Source of the DNA: Novosphingobium sp.
GTDB lineage: Bacteria; Pseudomonadota; Alphaproteobacteria; Sphingomonadales; Sphingomonadaceae
NCBI GenBank assembly: GCA_020446505.1
Contig: JAGREN010000050.1
Location: 8,423-72,422, forward strand
Reading direction: 5' to 3'
DNA: 64,000 nucleotides
Made by a program: the position numbers and the translations under genes. Shown here piece after piece: positions 4,729 through 53,555 of the stretch; positions within the stretch are counted from its first letter, which is position 1, and each line of letters starts with the position of its first letter. The notes beneath the pieces are model-generated. The model was not told the DNA's origin, did no database searches, and worked only from the letters and a program-made list of their open reading frames with translations.

Positions 4729-4860
4729 GACGAGCCGTTCCCTCTCCCGGTTGAATTAATAGGCCGACATTGCATCATTATGGACACGGCGCGCAATCCA
4801 ATACAGTATGAGCCATTGCATATCGCAGCTTTGGCTGCACTGATTCTCGGGAGAACAATC

Positions 4861-6521
<1,661 letters not shown>

Positions 6522-6525
<4 letters not shown>

Positions 6526-7433
6526 GCGCGATCAGGGAAGGCAACGTCGCCGTCATCACCGGAGCCGCCAGCGGCATCGGCTATGCGCTTGCAGAGGAAG
6601 CCTTGCGGCGCGGCATGAAGGTCGTCGTCTCCGACATACGCGAGGAGGCCCTGGCCGAAGCCGCCGCGAAGCTGACCGGACAGGGTGCGGACGTGCTCGC
6701 CGTTCTGGCTGACGTGACGAGCGAGGAAAACATCATCGCCCTGCGCGACAAGGCGCTCGAAAAGTTCGGCAAGGTCAACCTGCTGATCAACAATGCCGGC
6801 GCCTTCGTCGGCGGCCTCGCCTGGGAAACCAGCGCGCAGCAGATGGACTGGATCGTCGATCTCAACTTCAAGAGCGTCGCGCACGGCATCCGCACCTTCG
6901 TGCCGCAGATGATCGCCCAGGGCGACGAATGCCACGTCATGACCGTGGCATCGGCCGCCGGTCTTTCGGTCTATCCGGGCTATGCGACCTATTCGCCGAC
7001 CAAGCACGCGGCGCTGGCCATCACCGAGGCGCTCTATCTCGATCTCGCCGTCGAGGGCATCGACACCATCGGCGTGACGGTCATCATGCCGGGAATGGTG
7101 CGCACCGACATCATGAACCCCGAAAAGGTCAGCCCGGCGGCGCTGGGTCTGGACCGCGAGGCACGCCACGCCAACGCCACCGTGCGCGGAGTGGAAGCGA
7201 CGATGACCTCTGCGCTGGACGGGGCCATGCCGCCCGAGGAACTGGCGCGCTGCGTGTTCGATGCGGCAGATGCAGGCGAGCTCTACATCCTGCCCAACCA
7301 CGATGCCGAAGGGCCAACTTCGATGGTCAAGGCCATCGCCAACGGCAGAGCTACCGGCACCAATCCGTGGCCTGCTATCATGGGGAGCACCATGACGCGC
7401 ATGTTCGGCAAGACAGAGCCAGCCGACACCTGA
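6522..7433 (+). CDS. Short-chain dehydrogenase/reductase
   Basis: GTG start overlapping the BVMO stop (GTGA). TGAASGIG, NNAG, YSPTK. Confidence 0.92.
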
Positions 7434-7467: not shown

Positions 7468-9243
7468 ATGACACAGCAATTCGATACGGTAATCCGGGGC
7501 GGCCTGATCGTTGACGGGACTGGCGCGGAACCCACCATCGGCGACGTTGCAATCCGTGACGGCGTGATCGTCGCGGTCGGCAAGGTGGATGGTGAGGGTG
7601 CGCAGGAAATCGACGCGACCGGCCTTGCGGTAACGCCCGGCTTCATCGACCTGCACACCCATTACGACGGGCAGGCGATCTGGTCGCAGCGGCTGAACCC
7701 CTCGTCCGGTCACGGCGTCACCACCGTGGTCATGGGCAACTGCGGCGTCGGCTTTGCGCCGTGCCGTCCGTCCGACCGCGACTTGCTCGTGATGACCATG
7801 GAAGGCGTGGAAGACATTCCCGGCGTCGTCATGGCCGAAGGGCTGACATGGGACTGGGAAACCTTCCCCGAATTCATGGCTGCGCTGGACGCACGCAAGC
7901 GCGACATCGACGTGGCCGTCTTCGCTCCCCATTCGCCAATCCGTGTCTATGCAATGGGTGATCGCGGCGCCAATCGTGAGCCGGCGTCGGCAGAAGACCT
8001 CGAAAAAATGCGCGACCTCTCGCGCGAAGCCATCGCGGCAGGTGCCATCGGCGTTGCGACCAGCCGCACCCTGATCGACCGCCGGGCAGACGGCGAGCCG
8101 GTGCCGAGCTTCGATGCACCCACCGAGGAACTGGTAGCTCTCGCCCAAGGCGTCAGAGAAGGCGGCGGCGGCCTGGTCCAAGTCTTGCCCGAGTTCGGCA
8201 TGAACGGAAATCCGCCCGAAGCGGACTTCGAAATCATGCGCTCAGTCGCACAGGCAAGCGGTTTGCCGGTAACATTCAGCATCGTGCCGGGGCGGTCCGA
8301 CAAGGCCAAGAGCTTCTGGCAGGAGCTGATGGACCTCGTGGAAAATTACAACGCCAGTGGCGAAGGCCCCAAGCTGCACCCGCAATTTGCGCCGCGCCCG
8401 GTCGGCATGCTGGCGAGCTTCGATCTCACCAGCAATCCGTGGGCCGATTGCCCGACCTACAAGGCGCTGGCGCATCTCCCGATCGAGGAGCGCGTGAAGG
8501 AACTGAGCAAGCCGGAAGTGAAGGAAAAGATCCTCACCGAAACGCCCGACGAGGCCGTCATTCCGCTCACGGCGCTGACCCGCAACAACTACCATGTGAT
8601 GTTCGAGGTTACCTCCAACCCGAAGTACGAGCCGGAACCGGGTCAGTCGATCAAGGACCGGGCCGAGGCCATGGGCGTCTCGCCCGAGAGCCTCGCCTAT
8701 GACCTGCTGCTGCAGGACAATGGCCGCAACTACCTGCTCGTCGCCTTCGGCAACTATCCCGAGGATACGCTCGACCACCTGTTCCGCTTCTACGACAATC
8801 CCGATGCCGTGATGGGGCTTGGCGACGGCGGCGCGCACTATGGCCTGATCGTCGATTCGACCTATCCGACCTTCGTGCTCCAGCACTGGGCGCGCGACCG
8901 GCAGGGCCGCAGGCTGACGCTCGCACAAGCCGTGCAGGCAATGACGTCACAGCCAGCCGCAGTCATCGGCTTCGACGACCGCGGCGTGATCGCGCCGGGC
9001 AAGAAGGCGGACATCAACGTAATCGACCACAAGGCGATCCGCATGGACGCCCCGCGCGTCGTTTCGGACCTGCCCGGCGGCGGCCGCAGGCTGGACCAGC
9101 AGGCGCACGGCTATCGCTACACGCTGGTCAATGGCGAGGTCATTCTGAAGGACGACCAGCCGACCGGCATATTTCCCGGCAAGGTCGTGAAGGGCGCGGG
9201 CGCGAAGCAAGGCGAAGCGGCTCCGGCGGAGAGCATGGCCTGA
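7468..9243 (+). CDS. N-acyl-D-amino-acid deacylase-like amidohydrolase, copy 1
   Basis: IRGGLIVDGTG, PGFIDLHTHYD, GNCG, GLGDGGAH, G.IAPGKKAD. Confidence 0.9.
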   Translation: MTQQFDTVIRGGLIVDGTGAEPTIGDVAIRDGVIVAVGKVDGEGAQEIDATGLAVTPGFIDLHTHYDGQAIWSQRLNPSSGHGVTTVVMGNCGVGFAPCRPSDRDLLVMTMEGVEDIPGVVMAEGLTWDWETFPEFMAALDARKRDIDVAVFAPHSPIRVYAMGDRGANREPASAEDLEKMRDLSREAIAAGAIGVATSRTLIDRRADGEPVPSFDAPTEELVALAQGVREGGGGLVQVLPEFGMNGNPPEADFEIMRSVAQASGLPVTFSIVPGRSDKAKSFWQELMDLVENYNASGEGPKLHPQFAPRPVGMLASFDLTSNPWADCPTYKALAHLPIEERVKELSKPEVKEKILTETPDEAVIPLTALTRNNYHVMFEVTSNPKYEPEPGQSIKDRAEAMGVSPESLAYDLLLQDNGRNYLLVAFGNYPEDTLDHLFRFYDNPDAVMGLGDGGAHYGLIVDSTYPTFVLQHWARDRQGRRLTLAQAVQAMTSQPAAVIGFDDRGVIAPGKKADINVIDHKAIRMDAPRVVSDLPGGGRRLDQQAHGYRYTLVNGEVILKDDQPTGIFPGKVVKGAGAKQGEAAPAESMA

Positions 9244-10175
9244 TGTCGGACCGCACGCTCCACCCTTTCTGCGCGACCGTCGTCGCCAACCGCAAGGAAG
9301 CGGGCATTCCCGAATATGCCTCGCTGCCTCCCGAGGGCGCGCGCGCACTCATGACCTCGGTCATGGCAGCCGCGCCGCCGCCAACCGACCTGCCCGAACT
9401 GACTGCTGTCAGCAATTTCACGATCCCCGGCCCGCATGGCGACATTCCCGTGCGACGCTACACGCCGCTTGGGGAGGCAAAGGCCACAATCGTCTATTTC
9501 CACGGTGGCGGCTGGGTTCTGGGCGATCTCGAAACCGGCGACGGCATCTGCCGCCGCTGGGCCGGGTGGGCCGGCGTCGAAGTGCTGAGCGTGGACTATC
9601 GCCTCGCGCCCGAATACCCCTTCCCCATCCCGCTCGACGAGTGCTTCGCCGGACTTGAATGGGCCGATCAGAACATGCCCCACCCGCTGTTCATCGCTGG
9701 TGACAGCGCGGGCGGCAACCTCTCCGCAGCTATCGCCATCCGCGCCCGCGACGAAGGTGGTCCGGACCTTGCCGGACAGATCGTGATCTACGGTGCGCTC
9801 GGCCTCGATTACGAGACGGCCTCCTACCGCGAAGTCGGCGACAAGGGCTGGATGCTGTCCGGCAACGACATGGAATATTTCTGGGGCCATTACCTTTCCG
9901 GCGACGGAGAAAACGGCTCTGCGCTGGCGGTTCCGCTGAACCTCAAGTCTGCTTCAGGTCTGGCTCCTGCCTTCATCTGCACCGGAGACTGCGACGTCCT
10001 GTGCGACGACAACCTGGCCTATGCCGACAAGCTGCGCGAAGCTGGCGTGCCAGTCGAACTGCGCGTCGATCCGGGCATGTTCCACGGCTACTATTCGATG
10101 ACCAGTTTCGCCGAACCGGCCAAGGCAACCGTCGACGCAACAGTGCGCTGGATCGGCGAGAGGATCGCTGCCTGA
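9243..10175 (+). CDS. Alpha/beta hydrolase, HSL-family esterase/lactonase
   Basis: HGGGW, DYRLAPE, GDSAGG, D..CDD and HG catalytic motifs. Confidence 0.93.
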   Translation: MSDRTLHPFCATVVANRKEAGIPEYASLPPEGARALMTSVMAAAPPPTDLPELTAVSNFTIPGPHGDIPVRRYTPLGEAKATIVYFHGGGWVLGDLETGDGICRRWAGWAGVEVLSVDYRLAPEYPFPIPLDECFAGLEWADQNMPHPLFIAGDSAGGNLSAAIAIRARDEGGPDLAGQIVIYGALGLDYETASYREVGDKGWMLSGNDMEYFWGHYLSGDGENGSALAVPLNLKSASGLAPAFICTGDCDVLCDDNLAYADKLREAGVPVELRVDPGMFHGYYSMTSFAEPAKATVDATVRWIGERIAA

Positions 10176-10238: not shown

Positions 10239-11324
10239 ATGAAAGCCGCAGTCCTTCGCGAAATCAAAGCGCCGCTCACCATCGAGGACGTCGATCTCGA
10301 CGCCCCTGGCCCAGACGAGGTCCGCATCCGCGTCGTCAGCAGCGGCCTGTGCCATTCGGACTACCACTCGATCTCCGGCGACTTCCCGGTGCCCATGCCG
10401 GCCGTCCTCGGCCACGAGGCAGCGGGCGTGGTCGAAGCGGTCGGCTCGGACGTTACCGAATTCAAGAAAGGCGACGCGGTCGTCTCCTGCGTCTCGATGT
10501 ATTGCGGGCATTGCCGCGAATGCCTCGACGGGCACAACAATGTCTGCGGCGACAAGCCTTCGGCGCGCCCGGCTGACAAGCCTGCGCGCATCACCAAGGG
10601 CTCGGAAGTCTTCAACCAGTACGCCGGGCTTGGCGCCTTTGCCGAGGAAATGCTGGTCCACCGCACCGGCCTGACCAAGATCCCCGAAGGCATGCCGCTG
10701 GAAAAGGCCGGCCTGCTGGGTTGCGCCGTGCTGACCGGCGTTGGCGCTGCACTCAATGGCGCGAAGATCAGGCCCGGCAGCACCGTGGTCGTGGTCGGCG
10801 CAGGCGGCGTCGGCCTTAACGTCATTCAGGGCGCAAAGCTGGCGGGTGCGGCGCGGATCATCGCCGTCGACATCAACGAGCGCAAGTTCGACCTCGCCCG
10901 CGTCTTCGGCGCGACCGACTGCGTCAAGGGCGGGCCGGACGCCATTGCCGAGGTTAAGGAAATGACCGGCGGCGGCGCTGACTATGCCTTCGAGGTGATC
11001 GGCCTGACGCAGACGCAGGAACAGGCGCTGATGATGCTTCGCCGCCTCGGAACGCTGATGATCGTCGGCATGGCGCCGATGACGTCGCAGTTCAAGGTTT
11101 CGGGCGTGATGATGATGGCCCAGCAGCTCGAGATCAGAGGCTCGCTGATGGGTTCCGCCCCGTTCCAGATCGCCATTCCGGAATATGCGCAGCTCTATCT
11201 CGACGGCAAGCTGAAGCTCGACGAGATGATCTCCCAGAACATCAAGCTGGAAGACATCAACGACGGCTACGCCAAGATGATGGCAGGCGACGTGGCGAGG
11301 AGCGTGATCGTCTTCGACAGCTGA
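10239..11324 (+). CDS. Zn-dependent alcohol dehydrogenase
   Basis: GLCHSD, GHEAAG, CGHCRECLDGHNNVC structural Zn site, LGCAVLTG, GAGGVG. Confidence 0.95.
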   Translation: MKAAVLREIKAPLTIEDVDLDAPGPDEVRIRVVSSGLCHSDYHSISGDFPVPMPAVLGHEAAGVVEAVGSDVTEFKKGDAVVSCVSMYCGHCRECLDGHNNVCGDKPSARPADKPARITKGSEVFNQYAGLGAFAEEMLVHRTGLTKIPEGMPLEKAGLLGCAVLTGVGAALNGAKIRPGSTVVVVGAGGVGLNVIQGAKLAGAARIIAVDINERKFDLARVFGATDCVKGGPDAIAEVKEMTGGGADYAFEVIGLTQTQEQALMMLRRLGTLMIVGMAPMTSQFKVSGVMMMAQQLEIRGSLMGSAPFQIAIPEYAQLYLDGKLKLDEMISQNIKLEDINDGYAKMMAGDVARSVIVFDS

Positions 11325-11359: not shown

Positions 11360-12589
11360 ATGGCGACACAAGCACAGACCGCAAGCACCCCGCCGGGCAT
11401 CGACCCGGCGCTGGTGATCGACTTCGACCTATATGACGACGCGCGCTTCGTCAGCGCGGGCGGCATTTTCGAAGCGATGGGCGAACTGCGCGACCAGGCT
11501 CCGGACGTTTTCTGGAGCACCTCGCTCGGCGGCTACTGGGTGATCCAGGGCTACGACGCCATCGTCGAGGCGGCCAAGCGCGGCGACCTGTTCACCAGCA
11601 GCAGGATGGGCATTCCGCCGACCGAGGACGATGGACGCCAGAGGCGACGACTTGCTCCCCTGAACTACGATCCGCCCGACCACGCGGCGCTGCGTTCGCC
11701 GCTCAACGCCATGTTCACGCCAGCCGCGATGAACAAGTGGTCGGGCCATATCCGCCAGCTTGCAGTCGAACTGATCGAGAAAGTCCGGCCCAATGGCAAG
11801 GCGGACATGTTCGATGAAGTGACCGAGCAGCTTCCGGTCCTGATTTTCATCGACCTGATGGGCCTGAAGCGCGAAGACTATCGCTTCTATCGCGCGCTCG
11901 CCAAGGCGGCTGTCGCCTCGCAGGATCGCGACGAGCGTTACGATGCCATGTTGCAGGCTTACCACCTGCTGAAAGGCGAGATCGCCGATCGCCGCGCCAA
12001 TCCGCGCGAAGACCTCATCAGCCGACTGCTCGATCTCGAGGTCGAGGGCGAGCCGATCACCGACGAGCTGGCGCTGGCCTATCTCGAACTGCTGTTCATT
12101 GCCGGGCTGGACACGGTCGCCAACGCCATGACCTTCGCGGTGCGCTATCTCGCCCTCGATCAGGATCTGCAACAGCGTCTGCGCGACGAGCCGGAGAAGA
12201 TCCCGCACGCGATGGAAGAACTGCTGCGCCGTCATGCGGTCGCCCCGGTAATGCGCTCGGTTACGCACGATTTCGAATGGCGCGGCTTCAATTTCCGCGC
12301 AGGCGATCCGGTGCTGCTCAACTACTCCGCCGCCAACCTCGACGAGCGCATGTTCGAACATGGCCGGGAAGTCGATGTCGATCGCGAACGCATCAACCAC
12401 GTCGCGTTCGGTGCCGGGCACCACCGCTGCCTGGGACGCAATCTCGCACGGATCGAGATCGTGATCTTCTTCGAGGAACTGCTCTCGCGCCTGCCGACCT
12501 TCCGGCTCGCGCCGGGCGAGGAGGTGCCGATGCGCGGCGGAAGCGTGATGTCGATAGGCAGGCTGCCACTGGTGTGGGACGCGAGCTGA
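11360..12589 (+). CDS. Cytochrome P450 (P450cam/CYP101-like architecture), tandem copy 1
   Basis: LVIDFDLY N-terminus, AGLDT I-helix, EELLRR, FGAGHHRCLG heme motif. Confidence 0.96.
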   Translation: MATQAQTASTPPGIDPALVIDFDLYDDARFVSAGGIFEAMGELRDQAPDVFWSTSLGGYWVIQGYDAIVEAAKRGDLFTSSRMGIPPTEDDGRQRRRLAPLNYDPPDHAALRSPLNAMFTPAAMNKWSGHIRQLAVELIEKVRPNGKADMFDEVTEQLPVLIFIDLMGLKREDYRFYRALAKAAVASQDRDERYDAMLQAYHLLKGEIADRRANPREDLISRLLDLEVEGEPITDELALAYLELLFIAGLDTVANAMTFAVRYLALDQDLQQRLRDEPEKIPHAMEELLRRHAVAPVMRSVTHDFEWRGFNFRAGDPVLLNYSAANLDERMFEHGREVDVDRERINHVAFGAGHHRCLGRNLARIEIVIFFEELLSRLPTFRLAPGEEVPMRGGSVMSIGRLPLVWDAS

Positions 12590-12608
12590 GGCAGGAGGAG
12601 CGACGGTC

Positions 12609-13832
12609 ATGGCGACACTGGCGGAACACCCCGTACCAAGGGACATCGATCCGGCGCTGGTGATCGACTACGATTTCTACGACGATGAAATCTACAGGAC
12701 CGCGGGCGGAATACCCGAAGCCATGGTCGAGCTGCGCAAGGCCGCGCCGGACGTGTTCTGGAGCACGGCACTGGGTGGCTACTGGGTCGTTCAGGGCTAC
12801 GAATCGATTGTAGACGCGGCAAAGCGCACCGACCTGTTCAGCAGCGTGAAGATGGGCATTCCCGAACGCCCCGAAGACGCGCAGATGCATCAGTCCGCGC
12901 CGCTGAACTACGACCCGCCCGACCACGCCGCCCTGCGCACGCCGCTCAACACGGTATTTACGCCAACGCAGATGTACCGCCGGGTCGACCAGATCCGGGA
13001 TCTGGCGATCGACCTGATCGAGAGTGTCGCGCCGCTTGGCAAGGCCGACATGTTCGAGGCCGTGACCGAACGGATGCCGGTGCTGATCTTCATCGACCTC
13101 ATGGGTCTGGATCGCGCCGATTTCAAAACCTACCGCACCATTGCGACGGCTGGCATCAGCTCGACCGACATGCAGGAGCGGATCGATGCCGGGCGCGAGG
13201 CGCGCCGGCTGGTTACGCAGTGCATCCGCGAACGCCGGGCCGAACCACGCGACGATCTCATCACCTATATCACCCGGATGGAAGTCAACGGCCAGCCAGT
13301 CGATGACGAACTCGCCCTGTCCTACTGCATCCTGCTGTTTTTCGCGGGGCTCGACACAGTCGCCAATGCCATGGCGTTCTGCCTGCGCTACCTCGCCATG
13401 GACCAGGACCTGCAAGCGCGCCTGCGCCGCGAGCCCGAGAAGATTCCGCATGCCATGGAAGAGCTGCTGCGCCGTCATGCCGTCGCTCCGGTACAGCGCA
13501 CCGTCATGAAGGACGAGTGCTGGCGCGGCTTCAACCTGCGCAAGGGCGACATGGCGCTGCTCAACTATCCGGCCGCCAATATCGACGAGCGGGTTTTCGA
13601 CCATGCCGACCAGGTCGACATAGATCGCGAGCGGATAAACCACATCGCATTCGGTGCAGGCGTTCACCGGTGCGCGGGCAGGCATCTGGCGCGTATCGAA
13701 ATCGTCGTGCTGCTAGAGGAACTGCTGAAGCGCATCGGTACGTTCCGGCTCGATCCGGAAGGCGAGGTCACCATGCGGGGAGGCGCAGTTCTTTCGATCG
13801 GAACCTTGCCGCTGGTGTGGGACACGAACTGA
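12609..13832 (+). CDS. Cytochrome P450, tandem copy 2
   Basis: AGLDT, EELLRR, FGAGVHRCAG. Confidence 0.96.
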   Translation: MATLAEHPVPRDIDPALVIDYDFYDDEIYRTAGGIPEAMVELRKAAPDVFWSTALGGYWVVQGYESIVDAAKRTDLFSSVKMGIPERPEDAQMHQSAPLNYDPPDHAALRTPLNTVFTPTQMYRRVDQIRDLAIDLIESVAPLGKADMFEAVTERMPVLIFIDLMGLDRADFKTYRTIATAGISSTDMQERIDAGREARRLVTQCIRERRAEPRDDLITYITRMEVNGQPVDDELALSYCILLFFAGLDTVANAMAFCLRYLAMDQDLQARLRREPEKIPHAMEELLRRHAVAPVQRTVMKDECWRGFNLRKGDMALLNYPAANIDERVFDHADQVDIDRERINHIAFGAGVHRCAGRHLARIEIVVLLEELLKRIGTFRLDPEGEVTMRGGAVLSIGTLPLVWDTN

Positions 13833-13844
13833 ATAAAGGGTACG

Positions 13845-15071
13845 ATGGCAATGGCGACACTCGCAGAACATCCGGTCCCGAAGGGCATCGACCCGTCGCT
13901 GGTTATCGACTTCGACTACTATTCGGACCGTCGCTACGGTCAGCCCGGCGGCATCCCGCAGGCGATGGCGGACTTGCGCGATGAAGCGCCGGACGCATTC
14001 TGGTCCACGGCCCTCGGTGGCTACTGGGTCGTTCAGGGGCACGAGGCCATCGTCGATGCCGCTGCGCGCACAGACCTGTTCAGCAGCGGCTACATGCGCA
14101 TACCTGCGCGGCCCGACCTGCCCGAACCACCCAAGAACATCCCGCTCCAGCTCGACCCGCCCAACCACGCCGCGTTCCGGGCACCGCTCAACAAGGTGTT
14201 CACGCCGACGCAGATGTATCGCCGGGTCGACCAGATCCGGGCGCTGGCCGTCGAACTGATCGACGCGATTGCTCCGCTGGGCGAGGCGGACTTCTTCGAT
14301 ACGGTCGCCGAGAAGCTGCCGGTGCTGATCTTCATCGACATCATGGGGCTCGATCGCGCGCATTTCCGGCAATACCGCGACATGGCCAAGGCAGCCGCGA
14401 GCGAACCCGATCAGGAGATCAGGCTCAAGGCCGTCCACGACGGCTCCGAACTTCTGGCGGGCGTGATCGCGGATCGTCGGGCCAATCCGCGCGACGATCT
14501 CATCTCCTATCTGCTCGATCTGGAGATCGAGGGCGCGCCGGTCAGCGACGACATGGTGCTCGGCTATTGCAAGCTGCTGTTCTTCGCCGGCCTCGATACC
14601 GTCGCCAATGCCATGTCCTTCATCATGTACTACCTCGCCAGGGATCAGGCGCTGCAGGAGCGGTTGCGGCGCGAGCCAGACAAGATCCCGCACGCGATGG
14701 AGGAGCTGATCCGCCGCCACGCCGTCGCCCCCGTCGTCAGGATCATCGCCAAGGACGAGGTCTGGCGCGGCCTGCCGCTGAGCAAGGGTGACATGGCGCT
14801 GCTCAACTATCCTGCCGCCAACATCGACCCGCGGGTTTTCGATCACCCGGACGAGGTCGATATCGACCGTGAGCGCATCAACCACATCGCTTTCGGCTCC
14901 GGCCCGCACCGCTGCCTCGGCCGCCATCTGGCGCGGATCGAGATGGTCGTGCTGCTGGAAGAAGCCCTGAGCCGCCTGCCGACTTTCCGTCTGGCGGAAG
15001 GCAAGCCGGTGCCCATGCGTGGCGGCGGCGTGCTGACAGTCGAATCTCTTCCGCTGGTCTGGGATCGCTGA
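13845..15071 (+). CDS. Cytochrome P450, tandem copy 3 (alternative start 13851)
   Basis: AGLDT, EELIRR, FGSGPHRCLG. Confidence 0.96.
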   Translation: MAMATLAEHPVPKGIDPSLVIDFDYYSDRRYGQPGGIPQAMADLRDEAPDAFWSTALGGYWVVQGHEAIVDAAARTDLFSSGYMRIPARPDLPEPPKNIPLQLDPPNHAAFRAPLNKVFTPTQMYRRVDQIRALAVELIDAIAPLGEADFFDTVAEKLPVLIFIDIMGLDRAHFRQYRDMAKAAASEPDQEIRLKAVHDGSELLAGVIADRRANPRDDLISYLLDLEIEGAPVSDDMVLGYCKLLFFAGLDTVANAMSFIMYYLARDQALQERLRREPDKIPHAMEELIRRHAVAPVVRIIAKDEVWRGLPLSKGDMALLNYPAANIDPRVFDHPDEVDIDRERINHIAFGSGPHRCLGRHLARIEMVVLLEEALSRLPTFRLAEGKPVPMRGGGVLTVESLPLVWDR

Positions 15072-15080: not shown

Positions 15081-15097
15081 CGATACTCGATGCATCA
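15081..15097. promoter_or_regulatory. Operator-like motif A (CGATACT-CGA-TGCATCA), overlapping the palindrome TCATAG-TGG-CTATGA at 15095-15109
   Basis: Intergenic, upstream of diiron copy 2; matches 1598, 17195 and 45231. Confidence 0.55.
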
Positions 15098-15152
15098 TAG
15101 TGGCTATGACGTACAAATTATCGAATCGAAATCGAAAAACAGGACACTGGAA

Positions 15153-15971
15153 ATGACTAACCTGGTCGTGCGCAAGATGCCGTTCGAATTCGAAGGCTGC
15201 GACTTCATCTGGAATCCGGCAAATCCCGGGTTTTCCGTGATGATGAATGCAGTTACGTTTCAGGCAATCGCGTTCGAGAAATACATCTGCAAGGCGATGA
15301 ACGCTGCCGAGAAGATTTCCCGCAAGCCCGAGATTACCGAGGAAATTCGCGCCTTCAACGCACAGGAGATGGTGCATAGCCAGGCCCACCGCAAACATGC
15401 GAAGGCGCTTGTCGACCAGTATCCCGGTCTGCAGGAGGCGCTCGATTTCTGCGATGCCGAGTACGAAAAGCTCTACGCCGAACGCGACCTGAAATATCAC
15501 CTGTCCTACTGCGCCAACATCGAGGCGACCTTCACGCCGCTGTTCGGCAACATCATCGAGCAGCGCGAGCTTCTGTTCACGGGCGGCGATCCGCGCATAT
15601 CCTCGCTGTTCCTCTGGCACTTCGTCGAAGAGATGGAACATCGGGCCTCTGCCCACGTCATCTACAACGACATCGTGCGCAATCCGTTCACGCGCTTCTT
15701 CAAATTGCGCAGCGTATTCGGTCACACCAAGGTGCTGGCCGAGAAAATCTACGAGGTGTTTCACGAGAACGTGCCTGAGTCGCGCTCCTACGGACTGGGC
15801 GAAGGCATGAACGCGATTCCCAAGCCCGTACTCAAGAAAATGCGAAACGGAATCCTCACCTCGCAAATGCCGTGGCACCGTCCCGGCAGCGCCAAGGTGC
15901 CAGCCTATTTCGAGGAATGGGTAGGGCGCTATAACGCGGGCGAAGACATGCGCTTTGCCTATTCGGCCTGA
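15153..15971 (+). CDS. 'Predicted metal-dependent hydrolase' (PF10118-like), ferritin-like diiron protein, copy 2
   Basis: Start chosen by alignment to copy 1 (MTNLVVRK vs MSNLTIKK). FEKYI, QEMVHSQAH, NIEATF, WHFVEEMEHRAS. Confidence 0.82.
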   Translation: MTNLVVRKMPFEFEGCDFIWNPANPGFSVMMNAVTFQAIAFEKYICKAMNAAEKISRKPEITEEIRAFNAQEMVHSQAHRKHAKALVDQYPGLQEALDFCDAEYEKLYAERDLKYHLSYCANIEATFTPLFGNIIEQRELLFTGGDPRISSLFLWHFVEEMEHRASAHVIYNDIVRNPFTRFFKLRSVFGHTKVLAEKIYEVFHENVPESRSYGLGEGMNAIPKPVLKKMRNGILTSQMPWHRPGSAKVPAYFEEWVGRYNAGEDMRFAYSA

Positions 15972-16009: not shown

Positions 16010-17155
16010 ATGGCATTTGAAGCACGCCCGTTCACTGTCGAAATTCCCCAGTCCGAACTCGACGATCTCGCCAAGCGGCTCGATCTGGTGCGCTGGCCCG
16101 AAAAGGAGACGGTGACCGACTGGACGCAGGGCGTTCCGCTGGCCGAGGCACGGCGTGTCGTCGATTATTGGCGCAACAGCTACGACTGGCGACGGTGCGA
16201 GGCGCAGATCAATTCGCACGACAACTTCCTTGCCGAGATCGACGGTCTGGACATCCATTTCATCCATGTCCGCTCGAAGCACGAGGATGCCCTGCCGCTG
16301 ATCCTTACGCATGGCTGGCCCGGATCGGTGATCGAGTTCCTCAATGTCATCGCCCCGCTAACCGATCCCACCGCGCACGGCGGCACGGCAGATCAGGCGT
16401 TCCATGTCGTGATCCCCTCGCTGCCGGGCTATGGCTTTTCCGGCAAGCCGACGGGGACCGGCTGGGGCGTGCAGCACACGTCCGAAGCCTGGCACAAACT
16501 GATGCTCGGCCTCGGTTACGACCGCTATGTCGCGCAGGGCGGCGACTGGGGTTCGGCAGTTACCACGGCAATGGCGATCAACAGGCCGGAAGGTCTGGCC
16601 GGGATCCATCTCAACATGATCGTCGGGGCGCCGCGCACCGATACGCAGATGGCCGATCTCACCGACGATGAGAAAGCCAAGCTGCAAAAGATGCAACACT
16701 GGAGCGCGAAGGAACGCGGCTATTCGGAGGAACAGTCCACCAAGCCGCAGACGCTTGGCTATTCGCTGGTCGATTCGCCGGTCGGGCAGGCCATGTGGAT
16801 CTACGAAAAATTCCACGGCTGGACCGACCGCACGACGGACAGCCCTGCCGACTCGTTCTCGCTCGACGAGATCCTCGACAACATCATGGTCTACTGGCTG
16901 ACCGCCACCGGCGCGTCATCGGCGCGCATGTACTGGGAGAGCCTGAACAAGTGGCCGAGCGACATGAACGATCTGCCAACGGCATACAGCGCTTTTCCCG
17001 GCGAAATCTTCGTTCCGGCGCGGCGCTGGGTCGAAAATCGCCATTCGAATATCGTCTATTGGGGTGAGCTCGACAAAGGCGGACACTTTGCCGCTTTCGA
17101 ACAGCCGGAAGCCTTCGTGGCCGAACTGCGCAAGGCCTTTGCAACCATGCGTTGA
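16010..17155 (+). CDS. Epoxide hydrolase (microsomal/EHN type), copy 2
   Basis: HGWPGS, GGDWGS, SSARMYWE, GGHFAAFE. Confidence 0.94.
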   Translation: MAFEARPFTVEIPQSELDDLAKRLDLVRWPEKETVTDWTQGVPLAEARRVVDYWRNSYDWRRCEAQINSHDNFLAEIDGLDIHFIHVRSKHEDALPLILTHGWPGSVIEFLNVIAPLTDPTAHGGTADQAFHVVIPSLPGYGFSGKPTGTGWGVQHTSEAWHKLMLGLGYDRYVAQGGDWGSAVTTAMAINRPEGLAGIHLNMIVGAPRTDTQMADLTDDEKAKLQKMQHWSAKERGYSEEQSTKPQTLGYSLVDSPVGQAMWIYEKFHGWTDRTTDSPADSFSLDEILDNIMVYWLTATGASSARMYWESLNKWPSDMNDLPTAYSAFPGEIFVPARRWVENRHSNIVYWGELDKGGHFAAFEQPEAFVAELRKAFATMR

Positions 17156-17252: not shown

Positions 17253-19019
17253 ATGTTCGATACGATCATCAGGGGCGGCAAGATCGCCGATGGCAGCGGC
17301 GACGACAGCTTCAACGCCGATATCGCCATCAAGGACGGCGTCATTGCCGAAATCGGCAAGGTTTCCGGCACTGCCACCAACGAGATCGACGCCGATGGCG
17401 CCCTGGTCACTCCCGGCTTCATCGACCTTCACACCCACTACGACGGCCAGTTCGTCTGGGACGACACCATCGACCCCAGCTTCTCGCATGGCGTGACCAC
17501 GGCGATCGGCGGCAACTGCGGCGTCGGCTTCGCCCCGGTCGAAAAGGAATTCCGGCGTCCGCTGGTCGAAATGATGGAAGGCGTCGAGGAAATCCCCGGC
17601 ATCGTCATCGACGAAGGACTGGACTGGAACTGGCGCAGCTTCGGCGACTATCTCGATCGCCTTGAGCAGAACAGGTTCTCGATGGACGTCGCCAGCCACA
17701 TCACCCACGCGCCGCTGCGCGTGTTCGCGATGGGCGAACGCGCCATCAACCACGAGAAGGCGACTCCCGAAGACATCGAAGTCATGGCCCGCCTCGTGCG
17801 CGAAGCCATGGATGCGGGCGCGGTCGGCTTTTCGAGCGGTCGGCTGCTTGAGCACCTGTCCAGCATTGGCGATCACGTGCCCGGCACCTTTGCCAATGAC
17901 GACGAACTGCTCGCCATCGCCAGCGCCATGGGCTCATCGGGCCACGGCGTGTTCCAGATGATCCCCAAGGGCGCGATCGGCAACATCATCGATCAGGACG
18001 ACATGACCAACAACCGGGTCGCCGAGATGGAGCGTCTGGTTCGCCTGACTCGCGCAGCGGGCCGTCCTTCGACCTACACGGTCATCGAGTTCTCCGACGA
18101 GCCGGAAAACCGCAAGTTCCTCGTCAGCGAAACCGACCGTATCCTCAAGGAAAACCCATCGCTCGAGATGCACCCGCAATGCGCCTCGCGCGGTGTCGGC
18201 TCGATCATGATGCTCGATTCGCATCACCCCTTCAAGTTCAAGCCCGCCTACCTCGAGATCGAAGGCCTGCCAGCGGCGCAGCGTGCCACGGCGATGCGCG
18301 ACCCGGCGCGGCGCGCGGCCATTCTCTCTCAGGAAGATGCTCCGCCCGCGGGCAGCGACCCGATGATCGTGCGGATGGTTTCGCGCATGCCGATGACTTC
18401 GCCCAGGTTCATCCTGATCCGCGATCGCGTGGACTACGAACCGCTGCCCGATCAGACGATCGGCGCGCTTGCCGCCGCTGCGGGCGTGACTCCGCTCGAA
18501 TACCTCTACGATCACATCACTGCTGGCGACGGCACCAATTCCGCGATCTCGTTCTTCCTCAACTACAACGAGGGCAACCTCGACGAAACCTACGAGATGA
18601 TGTCCAACCCCAATGTCATCAGCGGCCTCGGGGACGGCGGTGCGCACGTCCGTCTGATCTGCGACGCCTCGCAGACGACCTTCCAGCTCGCCTTCTGGAC
18701 TCGCGATCGCACGCGCGGCCCGAAGCTGCCGCTCGAATATGTCGTCCGCAAGATGACGCACGACAGCGCGCGGCTCTACGGCATGAACGACCGTGGCCTG
18801 CTCAAGGTCGGCAAGCGGGCGGACATCAATATCCTGGACTACGAAAACCTGAACGTCGGCGTGCCGAAGATGTATTTCGACCTGCCGAGCGGCGCGCCGC
18901 GCATGCATCAGCCTTCGACCGGCTATCTCGCCACCATGGTCAACGGTGAGGTTACGCGCCGCAACGATGCTGACACCGGTGCTCGTCCGGGCCGCCTCTA
19001 TCGCAGCCGCCCGAACTGA
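17253..19019 (+). CDS. N-acyl-D-amino-acid deacylase-like amidohydrolase, copy 2
   Basis: PGFIDLHTHYD, GGNCG, GLGDGGAH, G.LKVGKRAD. Confidence 0.9.
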   Translation: MFDTIIRGGKIADGSGDDSFNADIAIKDGVIAEIGKVSGTATNEIDADGALVTPGFIDLHTHYDGQFVWDDTIDPSFSHGVTTAIGGNCGVGFAPVEKEFRRPLVEMMEGVEEIPGIVIDEGLDWNWRSFGDYLDRLEQNRFSMDVASHITHAPLRVFAMGERAINHEKATPEDIEVMARLVREAMDAGAVGFSSGRLLEHLSSIGDHVPGTFANDDELLAIASAMGSSGHGVFQMIPKGAIGNIIDQDDMTNNRVAEMERLVRLTRAAGRPSTYTVIEFSDEPENRKFLVSETDRILKENPSLEMHPQCASRGVGSIMMLDSHHPFKFKPAYLEIEGLPAAQRATAMRDPARRAAILSQEDAPPAGSDPMIVRMVSRMPMTSPRFILIRDRVDYEPLPDQTIGALAAAAGVTPLEYLYDHITAGDGTNSAISFFLNYNEGNLDETYEMMSNPNVISGLGDGGAHVRLICDASQTTFQLAFWTRDRTRGPKLPLEYVVRKMTHDSARLYGMNDRGLLKVGKRADINILDYENLNVGVPKMYFDLPSGAPRMHQPSTGYLATMVNGEVTRRNDADTGARPGRLYRSRPN

Positions 19020-19038: not shown

Positions 19039-19070
19039 GCGGCCAGTCTGCCTTACGGCGGGCTGGCCGC
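19039..19070 (+). terminator. GC-rich stem-loop (probable terminator or intercistronic hairpin)
   Basis: GCGGCCAGTCTGCC-TTAC-GGCGGGCTGGCCGC, followed by AGTCATTTT. Confidence 0.55.
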
Positions 19071-19091: not shown

Positions 19092-20105
19092 ATGGCAACG
19101 ATGAAAGAATGGGTGCTTCGCCACCGTCCCGACGGCGATGTCGGACCTGACGACCTCGAATACGTCGAGAACGCTATCCCCCAATTGGCGGACGGCGATG
19201 TGCTGTTGCGCACGATTTACCTCTCGCTCGACCCCACCAACCGCATCTGGATGAGCGATCGCGACCAGTACATGCCGCCCGTCAGGATCGGCGACCGAAT
19301 GCGTGGCGGCAACATATGCGTTGTCGAACAGTCGCGTTCTGACAATCTCGCTCCCGGCGATATTGTCAGCTATTTCGGCGGCTGGGGCACGCACAGCGTT
19401 ACGCCTGCTGCGATGTGCAAGAAGCTGACGGCGATCCCCGGCGTGCCGCTCACGGCATTCCAGTCAGTGTTCGGCGGAACCGGCATTACCGCATGGTTCG
19501 GCCTCAAGGATGTGGGTCAGCCCAAGCCGGGCGAAACCGTCGTGGTCACATCGGCGGCAGGCGCTGTCGGCTCGATCGTCTGCCAGCTTGCGAAGCTTGA
19601 AGGCTGCCGCGTGATCGGCATTGCCGGCGGCGCGGAAAAGTGCCGCTGGCTGGTCGAGGAACTCGGCATCGACGGCGCCATCGACTATCGCAGCGAGGAC
19701 GTCGGTGCGGCGCTTGACCGACTGTGTCCCGATGGCATCGATGTCGACTTCGAGAATGTCGGCGGCGAGATCATGGACGCCATTATTGCGCGCATGAACA
19801 ACCACGGTCGTCTGGCCCTGTGCGGCATGATCGCGACCTACAACGACGATGGCCCCGTCCCCGGCCCGCGCGATTTCGCGCCGGTCCTGATGCACCGCCT
19901 GCGTATCGAAGGCTTCATCATCACCGATTACATGCACCGCGCCCAGGAAGCAGTCGAAGGGCTGGCCAGGCTGGTGGTCGAAGGCAAGCTGAAGTGGCAG
20001 GACCACGTCGACCAGGGCCTGGAGAACGCGCTGCAATCGCTCGACAAGCTGTTCACCGGCGGCAACCGGGGCAAGCTGCTCGTGCAGGTTTCGCCGGAGC
20101 CTTGA
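19092..20105 (+). CDS. NADP-dependent oxidoreductase (CurA/prostaglandin reductase-like alkenal/enone reductase)
   Basis: YLSLDPTNR, TAWFGL, TSAAGAVGS, FENVGG, LCGMIATYN. Confidence 0.92.
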   Translation: MATMKEWVLRHRPDGDVGPDDLEYVENAIPQLADGDVLLRTIYLSLDPTNRIWMSDRDQYMPPVRIGDRMRGGNICVVEQSRSDNLAPGDIVSYFGGWGTHSVTPAAMCKKLTAIPGVPLTAFQSVFGGTGITAWFGLKDVGQPKPGETVVVTSAAGAVGSIVCQLAKLEGCRVIGIAGGAEKCRWLVEELGIDGAIDYRSEDVGAALDRLCPDGIDVDFENVGGEIMDAIIARMNNHGRLALCGMIATYNDDGPVPGPRDFAPVLMHRLRIEGFIITDYMHRAQEAVEGLARLVVEGKLKWQDHVDQGLENALQSLDKLFTGGNRGKLLVQVSPEP

Positions 20106-20118: not shown

Positions 20119-20481
20119 ATGATAAAACTGACGATGCTGATCCGCCGCAAGGACGGAATGACGCGTGAAGAGTTTCGCGAATACTACGAGACCAACCACA
20201 TCCCGCTGGCCGAAGCGCACACGCCCTATCTCGTCGGCTACAAGCGCAACTTCATCGTCGATCAGTTCGCTGGCGAGGACCAGTTCGACTGCATCACCGA
20301 ATTCTGGTTCGATGTGGAGGGCGATTACGCCGAGGTCCGCGCGACCCTGTTTCCCGCCGATGTCCAAAAGATGATGGCCGAGGATGAAGCGAACTTCATC
20401 GACCGCTCCAGGAGCCAGCTCTTCCTGATCGACGAACAGGCCAGCCCGCCGGAGAACCTTCAGGGCTACTCCGGCGGCTGA
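20119..20481 (+). CDS. EthD-domain protein
   Basis: RKDGMTREEFREYYETNHIPL...FDCITEFWF...DEANFID pattern. Confidence 0.85.
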   Translation: MIKLTMLIRRKDGMTREEFREYYETNHIPLAEAHTPYLVGYKRNFIVDQFAGEDQFDCITEFWFDVEGDYAEVRATLFPADVQKMMAEDEANFIDRSRSQLFLIDEQASPPENLQGYSGG

Positions 20482-49382: not shown

Positions 49383-51905
49383 ATGAGCGGTATCCTTTCT
49401 GACCTGCGCGTGCTCGATCTCAGCCGCGGCATTGCCGGGCCGATGACCGGCATGATGCTCGGCGATCATGGCGCCGACGTCATCCGTATTGAGCCGCCGG
49501 GCGGCGACTGGCTGGAAGAGGTCGGCCGCTGTCGCCTCGGATACCGCACATGGCATCGCGGCAAGCGGTCCATCGCCCTTGACTTCACGGATGATGCCGA
49601 CCGCGAGGTGTTTCTCGCACTTGCCGCCCATGCCGACGTGCTGATCGAGAATTACCCGGTGGGAACGGCGCGAAAACTGGGCGTCGACTACGACAGGCTC
49701 AGCGAGATCAACCCGCGCCTGATCCACACCTCGATCGACGGCTACCGCGACACCTCAAACCGCGACCGGCCAGCTTACGACCTCCTCGTAGCAGCCCGCA
49801 TGGGTCTGCAGTGGGAACACCGGTCCTGGCCGGAGACATCGCTTTACCGCATGGCCAAGGCGCCGGACCCATTCCCCGACTTCGACGTGGACTGGGATCT
49901 GAAGCAGGGGCCGCCGCGCGAAGGTCCGTTGCTTGCAGGCGTGCCGACTGCCTCGCTTGGCACCTTCTACGGCGCGATCTCTGCCATCTGCGCCGCGCTC
50001 ATCGCGCGCGAGAACAGCGGGCGCGGACAGCACATCCAGACCAGCATGATGCAGGGCTGCGCCTATGCCGCCCAGACCGTGTGGCAGCGCGCCGAAGACT
50101 ACGAAGCGCCCGGATTCGCCACCTGGATCTACGGCAGCAAGGCGCCCAAGGGGCATTTCAGGTGCGCGGACGGTCGCTGGATTCACCAATGGGTGCCCAA
50201 CCCGCGCTTCATGCTCGGCGCGTCGGCCGGCGATACGCTCAACGCCACGCCCGATCTGTCAACGCGCGACGATCCCGACCGCCTCGGCACGGCGATCGAG
50301 GAAACCTTCGTCGTCGCCTACTACAACGAGCAGATAGCCCCGCAGGTCGCCAAGTTCGACAGCGAGGAATGGGTCAAGGCCGGAGCGATTGCCGACATCC
50401 CCCTGCAGATTGCCCGCCCTCCCGAAGAGGCGCTGACCGATCCGCTGTTCATGGACTATGGCGCGGTGCGCGAAGTCGACGATCCGGTGTTCGGACCGGT
50501 GCGGCAGGCCGGACGCTTCATTGAATACACGGTCTCGCCCAGCGAACCGTCCGGCGTCGCGCCCCTGCCAAACCAGCACGAGGAAGAAATTCGCGCCGAA
50601 GCCGCGCAGCTTGCCTCGAAGCCCCGCCCTGTTCCCGCAAGCGCCGCTCCAGCCGCAGCGAAACCTCCGCTCGACGGCGTGCGCGTGATCGATTTCGGGC
50701 TGGCGCTTGCCGGCCCCTACGGCACCCAGACGCTCGGCGATCTTGGCGCGGACGTCATCAAGGTCGGCGCGTTCCATGACGCCTACTGGCACCGCAACCA
50801 CATCGCCATGTGCTGCAACCGCTCCAAGCGCAGCCTGTGCATCGACCTCAAGCATCCCGGTTCGCGCGAGGTGCTGCACCGGCTGGTGGCAGGCGCCGAT
50901 ATTGTCCAGCACAACATGCGCTATGAAGCGGCAGAGCGGCTCGGCATCGACTACGAGAGCCTCAGGGCGGTGCGGCCGGACCTGATCTACTGCCACACGC
51001 TCGGCTTCCTGCCCGGCCCCGACGAGAAACTGCCCGGCAACGAACAGACCGGCGCCTGTCAGGCAGGCGTCGAATACGAGGACGGCGGCATGGCGCGCGG
51101 CGGCAAGCCGATCTGGACGATGACCCAGTACGGCGACACCGGCAATGGTCTGCTGTCGGCCATCGGCATGATGAACGCCCTGCGCCACCGGATGCGCACG
51201 GGCGAGGGTCAGTTCCTGCGCACCTCCATCGTCAATGCGCAGATGCTCAACATGTCGCATGTCATGGCCCGGCCCGATGGCGAGGCGATGGACCGCTGGC
51301 TGCTCGACGGCATGCAGATGTATTTCACCGCCCTCTACGGCCTCTATCCCACCGCGGACGGCTGGCTGGCGCTGGCGGTGCTGACCGAGGATCAATGGCG
51401 GCGGCTGGCTGGCGTGCTGCCCGACCTTGCCAACGAGCAATTCGCCGATGCCGACAAGCGCAAGGCCAGTGACGATGCGCTCAGAGCCGTGCTTGAAGCG
51501 ACATTCGCGACGCGCCCGGCTGCCGAATGGTTCGCCCTGCTCGATAAAGCAGGCGTGCCGTGCGAAGTCAGCGATCCGACCTACGGCCAGAATTTCCACG
51601 ACGATCCCGAGATCGAGGCGATGGGCCTGACCGCCCGGTTCCACAGTCCGATCGTTGGCAGGTTCGATCAGGTTGGCCTGTCCTACGCCCTGTCGGACAC
51701 GCCCGTCCATATCCCGCACGGCCCCATCGTGCTGGGCGAGGGAAGCGAGGCAATCCTTGGCCAACTCGACTACACCGGGGCCGAGATCGAGGCGCTGGCT
51801 GCGGACAAGGTCGTGGGCCTGTGGTCACCGGGCATGCCGATGCTCGAGGGTCGGCGCTTGCTTGGCGCGGGCAAGGCAGCCAAGGAAAACGAGGGCGCGG
51901 GCTAG
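49383..51905 (+). CDS. Tandem double-domain family III (CaiB/BaiF) CoA-transferase
   Basis: Two RVLD/RVID...AGP...LGD.GADVI repeats in an 840-aa ORF. Confidence 0.92.
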   Translation: MSGILSDLRVLDLSRGIAGPMTGMMLGDHGADVIRIEPPGGDWLEEVGRCRLGYRTWHRGKRSIALDFTDDADREVFLALAAHADVLIENYPVGTARKLGVDYDRLSEINPRLIHTSIDGYRDTSNRDRPAYDLLVAARMGLQWEHRSWPETSLYRMAKAPDPFPDFDVDWDLKQGPPREGPLLAGVPTASLGTFYGAISAICAALIARENSGRGQHIQTSMMQGCAYAAQTVWQRAEDYEAPGFATWIYGSKAPKGHFRCADGRWIHQWVPNPRFMLGASAGDTLNATPDLSTRDDPDRLGTAIEETFVVAYYNEQIAPQVAKFDSEEWVKAGAIADIPLQIARPPEEALTDPLFMDYGAVREVDDPVFGPVRQAGRFIEYTVSPSEPSGVAPLPNQHEEEIRAEAAQLASKPRPVPASAAPAAAKPPLDGVRVIDFGLALAGPYGTQTLGDLGADVIKVGAFHDAYWHRNHIAMCCNRSKRSLCIDLKHPGSREVLHRLVAGADIVQHNMRYEAAERLGIDYESLRAVRPDLIYCHTLGFLPGPDEKLPGNEQTGACQAGVEYEDGGMARGGKPIWTMTQYGDTGNGLLSAIGMMNALRHRMRTGEGQFLRTSIVNAQMLNMSHVMARPDGEAMDRWLLDGMQMYFTALYGLYPTADGWLALAVLTEDQWRRLAGVLPDLANEQFADADKRKASDDALRAVLEATFATRPAAEWFALLDKAGVPCEVSDPTYGQNFHDDPEIEAMGLTARFHSPIVGRFDQVGLSYALSDTPVHIPHGPIVLGEGSEAILGQLDYTGAEIEALAADKVVGLWSPGMPMLEGRRLLGAGKAAKENEGAG

Positions 51906-53046: not shown

Positions 53047-53420
53047 TGCCCGGCCTCCACGGTGCGGATCAGCGGCAGCATCTGTCCGTCATAGTCAGCG
53101 ATCTCGAAGCGGACCGCCGCGCCGTTGACCGCGTTTTCCGGGTCGATGAGGCTGGAGACCATCCGCAGCCCCTCGGGCAGATCGACAAGACACACACAGC
53201 GCGAATTCTCGTCGCGGCGCGAGGGGTGGACCGAATCGATGAAGGCGAGGATCCGGCCTTCTCCAGAGAGCGGCACCGCGCTCCATTCGTCCGAACCACA
53301 GGCAGCGCACCGCGCCGCAGGCGGATGGCGCAAGGTCGCGCACGCGTCGCATTTCTGGGCAAGCAGCTCGCCCCGGTCGATCCCTTCCCAGAAGAAATCC
53401 TGATCGCGTTTGGCCTGCAT
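53043..53420 (-). CDS. DUF35 Zn-ribbon/OB-fold protein
   Basis: FFWEG...ELLAQKCDAC...HPP..RCAAC; stop overlaps the Ltp2-like start (ATGA). Confidence 0.9.
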   Translation of the reverse strand: MQAKRDQDFFWEGIDRGELLAQKCDACATLRHPPAARCAACGSDEWSAVPLSGEGRILAFIDSVHPSRRDENSRCVCLVDLPEGLRMVSSLIDPENAVNGAAVRFEIADYDGQMLPLIRTVEAGQ

Positions 53421-53473
53421 CGCTCTCCCCTTTGATTTCCTTGCGAAATTCGCGCCATTGCGAATTTCGATAG

Positions 53474-53555
53474 CGGCACCGGCCCACTCCCCCGCCCGGC
53501 CACCCAACGAGACGATATGCCTTGGGTGGCCGGGCGGGGGAGTGGGCCGGTGCCG
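53474..53555. repeat. Perfect 34-bp inverted repeat with a 14-nt loop (REP-like palindrome)
   Basis: CGGCACCGGCCCACTCCCCCGCCCGGCCACCCAA (53474-53507) and its exact reverse complement (53522-53555). Confidence 0.9.

Follow-up and report, generated by a model that had tools for sequence, protein, structure and literature searches.

Cytochrome P450 enzymes of the P450cam type are the textbook model of P450 mechanism and workhorses for selective C-H oxidation. In P450cam (CYP101A1), which is encoded in the camDCAB operon of the Pseudomonas putida CAM plasmid, R112 is used for docking of the ferredoxin, and in enzymes of this type the B-C/B' loop and the F-G lid select and orient the substrate. 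Camphor catabolism continues via Baeyer-Villiger oxygenation and CoA activation. Sphingomonads carry several paralogous CYP101 hydroxylases of terpenoids and norisoprenoids per genome, which share one ferredoxin system encoded elsewhere; the described enzymes include CYP101D1, CYP101D2 and CYP101C1 of Novosphingobium aromaticivorans, CYP101D5, and CYP101J2 of Sphingobium yanoikuyae. Tandem expansion of P450 genes, accompanied by divergence of the loops, is common. Here we describe three tandem P450 genes from a stretch of 64,000 nucleotides of Novosphingobium sp. DNA (contig JAGREN010000050.1; the whole stretch is referred to as the window). The genes are intact and paralogous, and their duplications are old. 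In the explanation that we favour, with moderate confidence, tandem duplications within a catabolic operon were followed by specialisation, and the three enzymes work in parallel.

Three intact and paralogous P450 genes

Three open reading frames (ORFs) on the same strand belong to the cytochrome P450 superfamily (PF00067, 87-98 bits against a cut-off of 22.8), and they lie exactly where a preliminary description of this DNA had placed three tandem P450 paralogues:

11360..12589, forward strand: P450 paralogue 1 (orthogroup A), 409 amino acids, Pfam PF00067 E 7e-28
12609..13832, forward strand: P450 paralogue 2 (orthogroup B), 407 amino acids, Pfam PF00067 E 1e-24
13845..15071, forward strand: P450 paralogue 3 (orthogroup C), 408 amino acids, alternative start 13851, Pfam PF00067 E 1e-25

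The proteins share 65% (1 and 2), 61% (1 and 3) and 67% (2 and 3) sequence identity. The genes are separated by gaps of 19 nt (genes 1/2) and 12 nt (genes 2/3), and a Shine-Dalgarno-like sequence is present upstream of each start. The reading frames are supported by the GC content of 0.80-0.84 at the third codon position, compared with 0.41-0.42 at the second. The third gene may in fact start at its second ATG (13851), which would give it the MATLA N-terminus common to gene 2 and the orthologues. Independent ENA contigs carry the upstream alcohol dehydrogenase (ADH) gene followed by P450_1, P450_2 and the start of P450_3, as well as the end of P450_1 followed by P450_2 and P450_3, and Logan contigs from activated-sludge runs cross the 1/2, 2/3 and 3/next-gene junctions with zero mismatches. 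Because these junctions recur in independent contigs, the array is real and not an assembly artefact. The protein of paralogue 2 is found in identical form on four independent metagenome contigs.

All three proteins contain the Cys loop FG(A/S)GxHRCxG (FGAGHHRCLG, FGAGVHRCAG and FGSGPHRCLG), the proximal Cys of which aligns to C357 of P450cam, and the alignment shows that equivalents of P450cam D251, T252, R112 and C357 are kept in each of them. The K-helix EELLRR/EELIRR and I-helix AGLDTV motifs are invariant in the trio and throughout the clade. The motifs quoted in the preliminary description (APDxFWSTxLGGYWV, PVLIFIDxMGL, AGLDTVANAM, IPHAMEELxRRHAVAPV and ERINHxAFG) were all recovered from the ORFs, together with the three B-C loop strings that it gave. 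Judged from these features, the intact paralogues are probably functional class I monooxygenases with the P450cam fold.

It had also been remarked that the N-terminus and the GLDT segment resemble P450cam, that identity to this enzyme looks low, and that the trio may form a separate family. In our comparisons the identity is indeed low, and a separate family is plausible. P450cam is the best match in the PDB for paralogue 1 (E 2e-70, 35% identity) and paralogue 2 (E 1e-63, 33%), and paralogue 3 matches P450cam (34% identity) and CYP101D1 almost equally (E 2e-67). CYP101D1 is the next-best match across the trio (E 1e-57 to 3e-67); CYP101D2, C1, D5 and J2 rank below CYP101A1 and CYP101D1 in phmmer, and P450cin and CYP125 come after them. 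The AlphaFold2 model of paralogue 1 (mean predicted local distance difference test score, pLDDT, 84.9; predicted template modelling score 0.87) also has P450cam as its best Foldseek match (template modelling score 0.87-0.90). This model is weak only at the B-C/B' loop (residues 82-106, window positions 11600-11680), where pLDDT is below 50. The same stretch of P450_1 is the most divergent segment among the paralogues and bears a conserved Arg triad.

Identity to CYP101D1 is 31.5, 32.0 and 33.6% for paralogues 1, 2 and 3, and CYP101A1 and CYP101D1 share 44.7% with each other. Membership of the CYP101 family requires at least 40% identity to a named member, and the trio lies below this level against both enzymes; the comparison consisted of the CYP101A1 and CYP101D1 alignments. 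As far as compared, the three proteins therefore fall outside CYP101 under the 40% rule and probably represent an unnamed CYP family, within which their mutual identity of 61-67% would place them in one subfamily or in closely related ones. NCBIfam offered no equivalog for the trio, all matches being far under the cut-offs.

In a collection of 5.8 billion proteins, all sequences with more than ~44% identity to the trio were of metagenome or metagenome-assembled genome (MAG) origin, and the clade at 48% identity or more consists of metagenome sequences only. In a set of 185,579 species-representative genomes, clade members with more than 60% identity come from just eight Novosphingobium/Sphingomonadaceae MAG loci, and the next matches show 40-42%. 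The nearest proteins found in cultured strains are ~40% (Sphingobium sp. C100) and 39% (plasmid-borne) identical. DNA nearly identical to 11360-15071 was detected at a low depth of ~4-5x in many metagenome runs of activated sludge and wastewater, which belong to several studies, and the related MAGs come largely from lakes, according to their record titles. An origin from a known plasmid was considered and rejected: a 16 kb megablast query against PLSDB gave only short matches of 72-84% to single genes, and the best plasmid P450 was 39% identical. Literature searches on the cluster, on tandem CYP101 genes in Novosphingobium and on 2-methylisoborneol degradation returned nothing relevant, and no clade-specific peptides were found in the supplements of a survey of Alphaproteobacteria P450s (PMC8197338). 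An independent array of three tandem P450s, ~30% identical to the trio, is present in an Acidimicrobiia MAG (DQOF01000152; 870-2066, 2462-3640 and 3730-4908).

In the clade tree, genes 1, 2 and 3 fall into orthogroups A, B and C with bootstrap values of 100, 100 and 99, respectively. The tree contains two more lineages, D and E, and the whole expansion is monophyletic (100%), with weak deeper branching (46-66%). Orthologues in other MAGs share 81-92% (paralogue 1), 83-87% (paralogue 2) and 79-92% (paralogue 3) identity. The synonymous divergence (dS) between paralogues is 0.92-0.96, and since this is near saturation, the ratio of non-synonymous to synonymous rates (dN/dS, omega) was taken from orthologue pairs. 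The nine pairs gave omega values of 0.10-0.13 in every lineage, so that the dN/dS comparison proposed in the preliminary description places each copy well below 1. Sliding third-position identity between the paralogues ranges from 0.24 to 0.80 with no extended tract, providing no clear evidence of gene conversion. The orthogroups, the paralogue dS and the low omega values together indicate that all three P450s have been kept for a long time under purifying selection. By these measures the duplications are old, and the trio does not consist of recent copies.

Divergence at the B-C/B' loop and F-G region

For the location of the differences, we used substrate-recognition site (SRS) windows that are our own approximation in P450cam numbering (78-104, 173-190, 191-202, 240-258, 290-300 and 391-400). 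Three-way identity is 45% within these windows and 55% elsewhere (p=0.08). The divergence is concentrated in the B-C/B' loop (20% identity), in the region from the end of the F helix through G and H (25-40%), and in the beta-segment after SRS5 (35%), whereas identity in SRS4 and SRS5 (75-85%) is among the highest of all segments. With broad windows, the 50 lineage-fixed differences are approximately two-fold enriched at SRS positions (20 of 100 sites, compared with 30 of 311 outside; p=0.008), and sites with three-way fixed differences follow the same trend (8 of 100 against 5 of 311; p=0.004). Thus, the earlier statement that the B-C loop and the F-G region differ is borne out. The broader one, that the paralogues diverged mainly at substrate-recognition sites, holds for these two hot spots but not for the conserved SRS4 and SRS5, and 30 of the 50 fixed differences lie outside the SRS windows. 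The residue after HAVAPV, given as M, Q or V, does vary in this way in the window, but it is mostly M in A and B orthologues and is fixed (V) only in the lineage of gene 3.

Within orthogroups, omega is 0.04-0.09 in the SRS windows and 0.12-0.16 in the rest of the protein, whereas between paralogues the proportion of non-synonymous differences (pN) is higher in the SRS windows (0.30-0.37 against 0.20-0.24). The regions that diverge between the lineages are therefore tightly constrained within each of them, which argues for specialisation and against relaxed loops. Each orthogroup has its own B-C/B' loop signature: RRRL-APLN in A, with the Arg triad present in 11 of 12 orthologues, M(T/H)(Q/K)(S/A)-APLN in B, and PP(K/L)N-IPLQ in C; the B and C signatures are fixed. 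In paralogue 3, an Arg is aligned to P450cam F87.

Five of the 12 positions aligned to substrate contacts of P450cam vary among the paralogues (87, 96, 185, 247 and 395). In paralogues 1/2/3, the camphor contacts are replaced as F87 to G/G/R, Y96 to R/H/P, T185 to V/I/A, V247 to I/F/F and I395 to S/A/G, and three further replacements (T101 to L, V295 to A and D297 to V) are common to the whole trio. All eight residues of the camphor-type pocket are thus replaced, in an alignment that has indels at 87-101. In contrast, CYP101D1 keeps Y96, T101, T185, V295, D297 and I395, and has W in place of F87 and L in place of V247. The replacement of all these contacts argues that camphor is not the substrate. 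Several of the new residues are smaller and would make the pocket larger, and the B-C loop of the trio is 2-3 residues longer than that of P450cam.

A variable P450 slot in a conserved operon

The P450 genes are part of a series of co-directional, tightly spaced genes, which extends from a Baeyer-Villiger monooxygenase (BVMO) to the second of two Amidohydrolase_3 proteins. We compared seven syntenic clusters (the window, L001, L002, L003, L005, L006 and L007), in which the flanks are conserved, with BVMO, short-chain dehydrogenase/reductase (SDR) and Zn-dependent ADH genes on the left, and epoxide hydrolase, Amidohydrolase_3, thiolase and ligase genes on the right. The content of the P450 slot between these flanks, given by orthogroup, is variable:

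Window and L002: A, B, C and PF10118
L001: A, C and PF10118
L003: A, B
L006: D, B
L005: A only
L007: E only

The slot thus holds one, two or three P450s between constant flanks. This variable content points to accessory copies by which the substrate range or regiochemistry is broadened, in agreement with one of the two roles suggested in the preliminary description, coverage of related substrates. The existence of viable clusters with a single P450, a different one in L005 and in L007, speaks against a relay on one carbon for which all three enzymes are required. The PF10118 gene is found at the slot only alongside a P450 of orthogroup C (window, L001 and L002) and is not there in L003, L005, L006 and L007. 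Distant members of the clade (52-55% identity) adjoin genes for Amidohydrolase_3, PF10118, and EHN or Zn-ADH proteins, and one of these neighbourhoods also contains BKACE, a KshA-like Rieske oxygenase and an ADH_N_2 reductase. As the distant members have the same neighbours, the P450s became associated with these enzymes before the triplication took place.

The other features of the operon and of its downstream border are as follows:

4780..6525, forward strand: type I BVMO, first operon gene; Pfam FMO-like and Pyr_redox_3; start inferred
6522..7433, forward strand: SDR; Pfam adh_short E 1e-44; GTG start overlaps the BVMO stop
7468..9243, forward strand: Amidohydrolase_3 protein with D-aminoacylase-like fold; Pfam; PDB D-aminoacylases E 4e-33; missing from the L005 and L007 clusters
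9243..10175, forward strand: Abhydrolase_3 esterase/lipase; Pfam PF07859 E 6e-62; syntenic; candidate hydrolase for the BVMO ester product
10239..11324, forward strand: Zn-dependent ADH; Pfam ADH_N and ADH_zinc_N; PDB liver-type ADHs E 7e-79; 35 nt upstream of the P450 array
15090..15971, forward strand: PF10118 "predicted metal-dependent hydrolase"; Pfam E 5e-31
16010..17155, forward strand: epoxide hydrolase (EHN and alpha/beta hydrolase); Pfam EHN E 2e-41; conserved right flank of the slot; 71-74% identical, syntenic
17253..19019, forward strand: second Amidohydrolase_3 protein; Pfam; synteny with 78-95% identity; last gene before a terminator-like hairpin
19039..19070, forward strand: hairpin of 14 bp (11 G-C pairs) with a T-rich tail; terminator scan, consensus match only
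19092-20105, forward strand: CurA-like NADPH enone reductase; Pfam ADH_N_2; NCBIfam curcumin reductase 355 bits, under the 440-bit cut-off
20119-20481, forward strand: EthD-domain protein; Pfam EthD

The operon BVMO is most similar in the PDB to phenylacetone monooxygenase (PAMO, E 3e-177) and steroid monooxygenase (E 1e-167) and is syntenic in relatives. The ORF listed for the SDR from position 6126 is over-extended, overlapping the BVMO gene by 400 nt (6126-6525), where the third-position GC values of the SDR and BVMO frames are 0.43 and 0.81, respectively. The start is likely to be the GTG at 6522, which follows a GGAGGA sequence and overlaps the BVMO stop (GTGA), and this overlap suggests translational coupling. 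The Zn-ADH gene, which forms the left flank of the slot, is syntenic and 80-91% identical in L001-L008. The hairpin at 19039-19070 is the probable end of the operon. Behind it, the CurA-like reductase and the EthD protein form a variable add-on, which is missing from L001, L002, L005 and L007, whereas the EthD gene alone is present in L003. EthD proteins are associated with P450s and have no assigned role.

The remaining part of the window is a dense beta-oxidation island, in which Pfam scans identified three AMP ligases, ~7 acyl-CoA dehydrogenases, eight enoyl-CoA hydratases, five family-III CoA-transferases, thiolases and thiolase-like proteins, and a ChsH2-type zinc-ribbon protein. A thiolase-like protein (Thiolase_C_1) adjoins the zinc-ribbon protein (51907-54290, reverse strand), an arrangement that resembles the aldolase/hydratase pairs of steroid or branched side chains. 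One of the five CoA-transferases, an 840-residue ORF (49383-51905) with two family-III domains, looks like a fusion or duplication, and a gene of the sulfotransferase family (57983-58867) is an odd companion within the island. The window also holds a second BVMO and a second pair of epoxide hydrolase and PF10118 genes. Thus, PF10118 is paired twice with an EHN epoxide hydrolase (15090-15971 with 16010-17155, and 1571-2500 with 370-1530), and it also neighbours a clade member with 52% identity (P0032). The PF10118 protein has no relative in the PDB, and a literature search on its function found nothing.

Two kinds of enzymes were searched for in the window and not found. Neither a six-frame scan for Cys motifs nor the Pfam scans of the window ORFs detected a ferredoxin or ferredoxin reductase within the 64 kb. 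The cognate [2Fe-2S] ferredoxin and FAD reductase genes by which a three-component (class I) bacterial P450 system is recognised are therefore lacking next to the trio, but the equivalent of R112 is kept in the P450s, and on these two grounds we assume that the redox partner is encoded elsewhere. Likewise, Pfam scans of ~55 ORFs and a six-frame search with PROSITE motifs revealed no aldehyde dehydrogenase (ALDH) encoded in the window, as the preliminary description had noted.

Proposed roles and relation to known systems

In the parallel arrangement that we favour, each lineage has kept the catalytic core and the inner walls of the active site (I-helix/SRS4 and SRS5) and fixed its own B-C/B' loop and F-G lid. 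Each P450 would hydroxylate an unactivated C-H bond on a different substrate or position, and one of them might epoxidise its substrate and so feed the epoxide hydrolase. As a guess, the substrates could be hydrophobic alicyclic, terpenoid/norisoprenoid, steroid-like or alkyl compounds that can form ketones. The products of all three would enter one shared downstream route. The ADH or SDR would convert the alcohol to a ketone, the PAMO/steroid-monooxygenase-like BVMO the ketone to an ester or lactone, and the esterase or an amidohydrolase the latter to an acid and an alcohol, before the CoA ligases and the beta-oxidation island of the window take over. Electrons would be supplied by the ferredoxin and reductase encoded elsewhere. 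No local ALDH would be needed, because this BVMO-esterase-ADH-SDR route gives acids. The logic of the route mirrors that of the camphor, cineole, subterminal-alkane and steroid side-chain pathways.

Several observations weigh against this explanation. The order of the pathway steps is drawn from gene content, the redox chain is an assumption, and no RNA run among those searched holds the locus. None of the seven clusters has B or C unless A or D is also present, a pattern that would fit as well if B and C used the product of A. The SRS enrichment is sensitive to the choice of windows, with p=0.06 and 0.14 for narrow ones, and P450s in general vary most in their B' and F-G regions. The B' loop alignment has indels, and residue-level claims in the B-C loop are uncertain because the AlphaFold2 model is unreliable there.

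The occurrence of B and C only together with A or its sister D would also be accommodated if the enzymes act in series, with A hydroxylating first, and B and C oxidising other carbons of the same polycyclic or terpenoid molecule or epoxidising it for the epoxide hydrolase, so that several rings or chains would be prepared for Baeyer-Villiger cleavage. The presence of two BVMOs and two epoxide hydrolases in the window is consistent with this scheme, as is the constant company of the group-C P450 and the PF10118 gene, which resembles a two-gene module. However, the single-P450 clusters L005 and L007 keep the same downstream genes, indicating that the pathway does not require the additional oxidations, each of B and C is found in a cluster that lacks the other, and seven genomes are too few to establish dependence; we regard serial action as possible but not probable. 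The other role suggested in the preliminary description, a stepwise oxidation of one carbon divided among the trio (methyl to alcohol, aldehyde and acid) that replaces the missing ALDH, appears improbable. Some P450s, such as CYP125 and CYP142, do take a methyl group through to the acid, but in these cases a single enzyme performs every step. Moreover, A in L005 and E in L007 lack the supposed partners, the two-P450 clusters L001, L003 and L006 differ in composition, the BVMO, esterase, ADH and SDR of the operon provide an ALDH-free path to carboxylates, and an ALDH could be encoded elsewhere in the genome.

The fact that the B' and F-G loops are generally under the least constraint in P450s, together with the negative RNA search, could also mean that the copies are redundant, serving for dosage or turning into pseudogenes, with relaxed constraint as the cause of the loop divergence. 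This is very improbable, given that none of the three ORFs is disrupted and that their catalytic motifs are complete, that each copy is kept across species at the low omega given above, that the regions divergent between paralogues are the most conserved ones within orthogroups, and that a paralogue dS of ~0.9 implies long co-existence. A further idea, which we offer tentatively and consider doubtful, is that the slot is modular: uncultured Novosphingobium of wastewater and lakes would swap P450s of the unnamed family in and out, one of them as a two-gene unit with PF10118, and in this way retarget the BVMO-esterase-beta-oxidation pathway to other alicyclic, terpenoid or steroid-like compounds. 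The Arg triad of group A might then bind an anionic substrate, for which a carboxylate, a sulfate ester or even a CoA thioester might be candidates; if true, this would be unusual for a P450cam-type enzyme.

The three natural variants, which differ in fixed B' and F-G elements on one scaffold, offer a ready-made system for studying the effect of loop replacement on specificity, and the metagenome-only lineage, with 31-35% identity to solved CYP101s, would add new specificities. The variable-copy slot in a conserved operon is a clear illustration of the way in which catabolic pathways come to accept more compounds, and it hints at an as yet uncharacterised degradation route in bacteria that are common in activated sludge. 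The trio is a new uncultured lineage of a well-known kind of enzyme, which has expanded in an ordinary way, and current understanding is not overturned by it.

A steroid or bile-salt pathway was also considered, prompted by a related MAG labelled "Novosphingobium sp. Chol11" and by genes resembling ChsH2/Ltp and heteromeric acyl-CoA dehydrogenases. It was not adopted, since the window has no ring-cleavage genes and the described Chol11 cluster differs. Pfam scans of the window found none of the 9,10-seco steroid genes (KshA, KstD and meta-cleavage enzymes). The known bile-salt clusters of Sphingomonadaceae use Rieske oxygenases instead, and the side-chain cluster of Chol11 contains a Rieske oxygenase and amidases, with a single P450 that was undetected in proteomes (bioRxiv 10.1101/2021.06.24.449856).

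The operon BVMO, which stands alongside an esterase, an SDR and an ADH, resembles the modules of steroid monooxygenase or PAMO with an esterase, but the P450 array is not part of those systems. Such modules convert an alcohol to a ketone, the ketone to an ester, and the ester to an acid and an alcohol. P450cam is the closest solved relative of the trio and shares with it the D251-T252 acid-alcohol pair, the Cys loop and the R112 equivalent, and the Zn-ADH gene lies directly upstream of the P450s, as camD precedes camC. On the other hand, the trio is only 33-35% identical to P450cam and has none of its eight listed camphor contacts, and the longer B-C loop is unrelated in sequence; compared with camDCAB, the window has three paralogues instead of one and no adjoining putidaredoxin or reductase genes. 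The CYP101 enzymes of sphingomonads share their fold with the trio and originate from the same bacterial family, but the three P450s described here form a tandem array within one operon and share 31.5-33.6% identity with CYP101D1.

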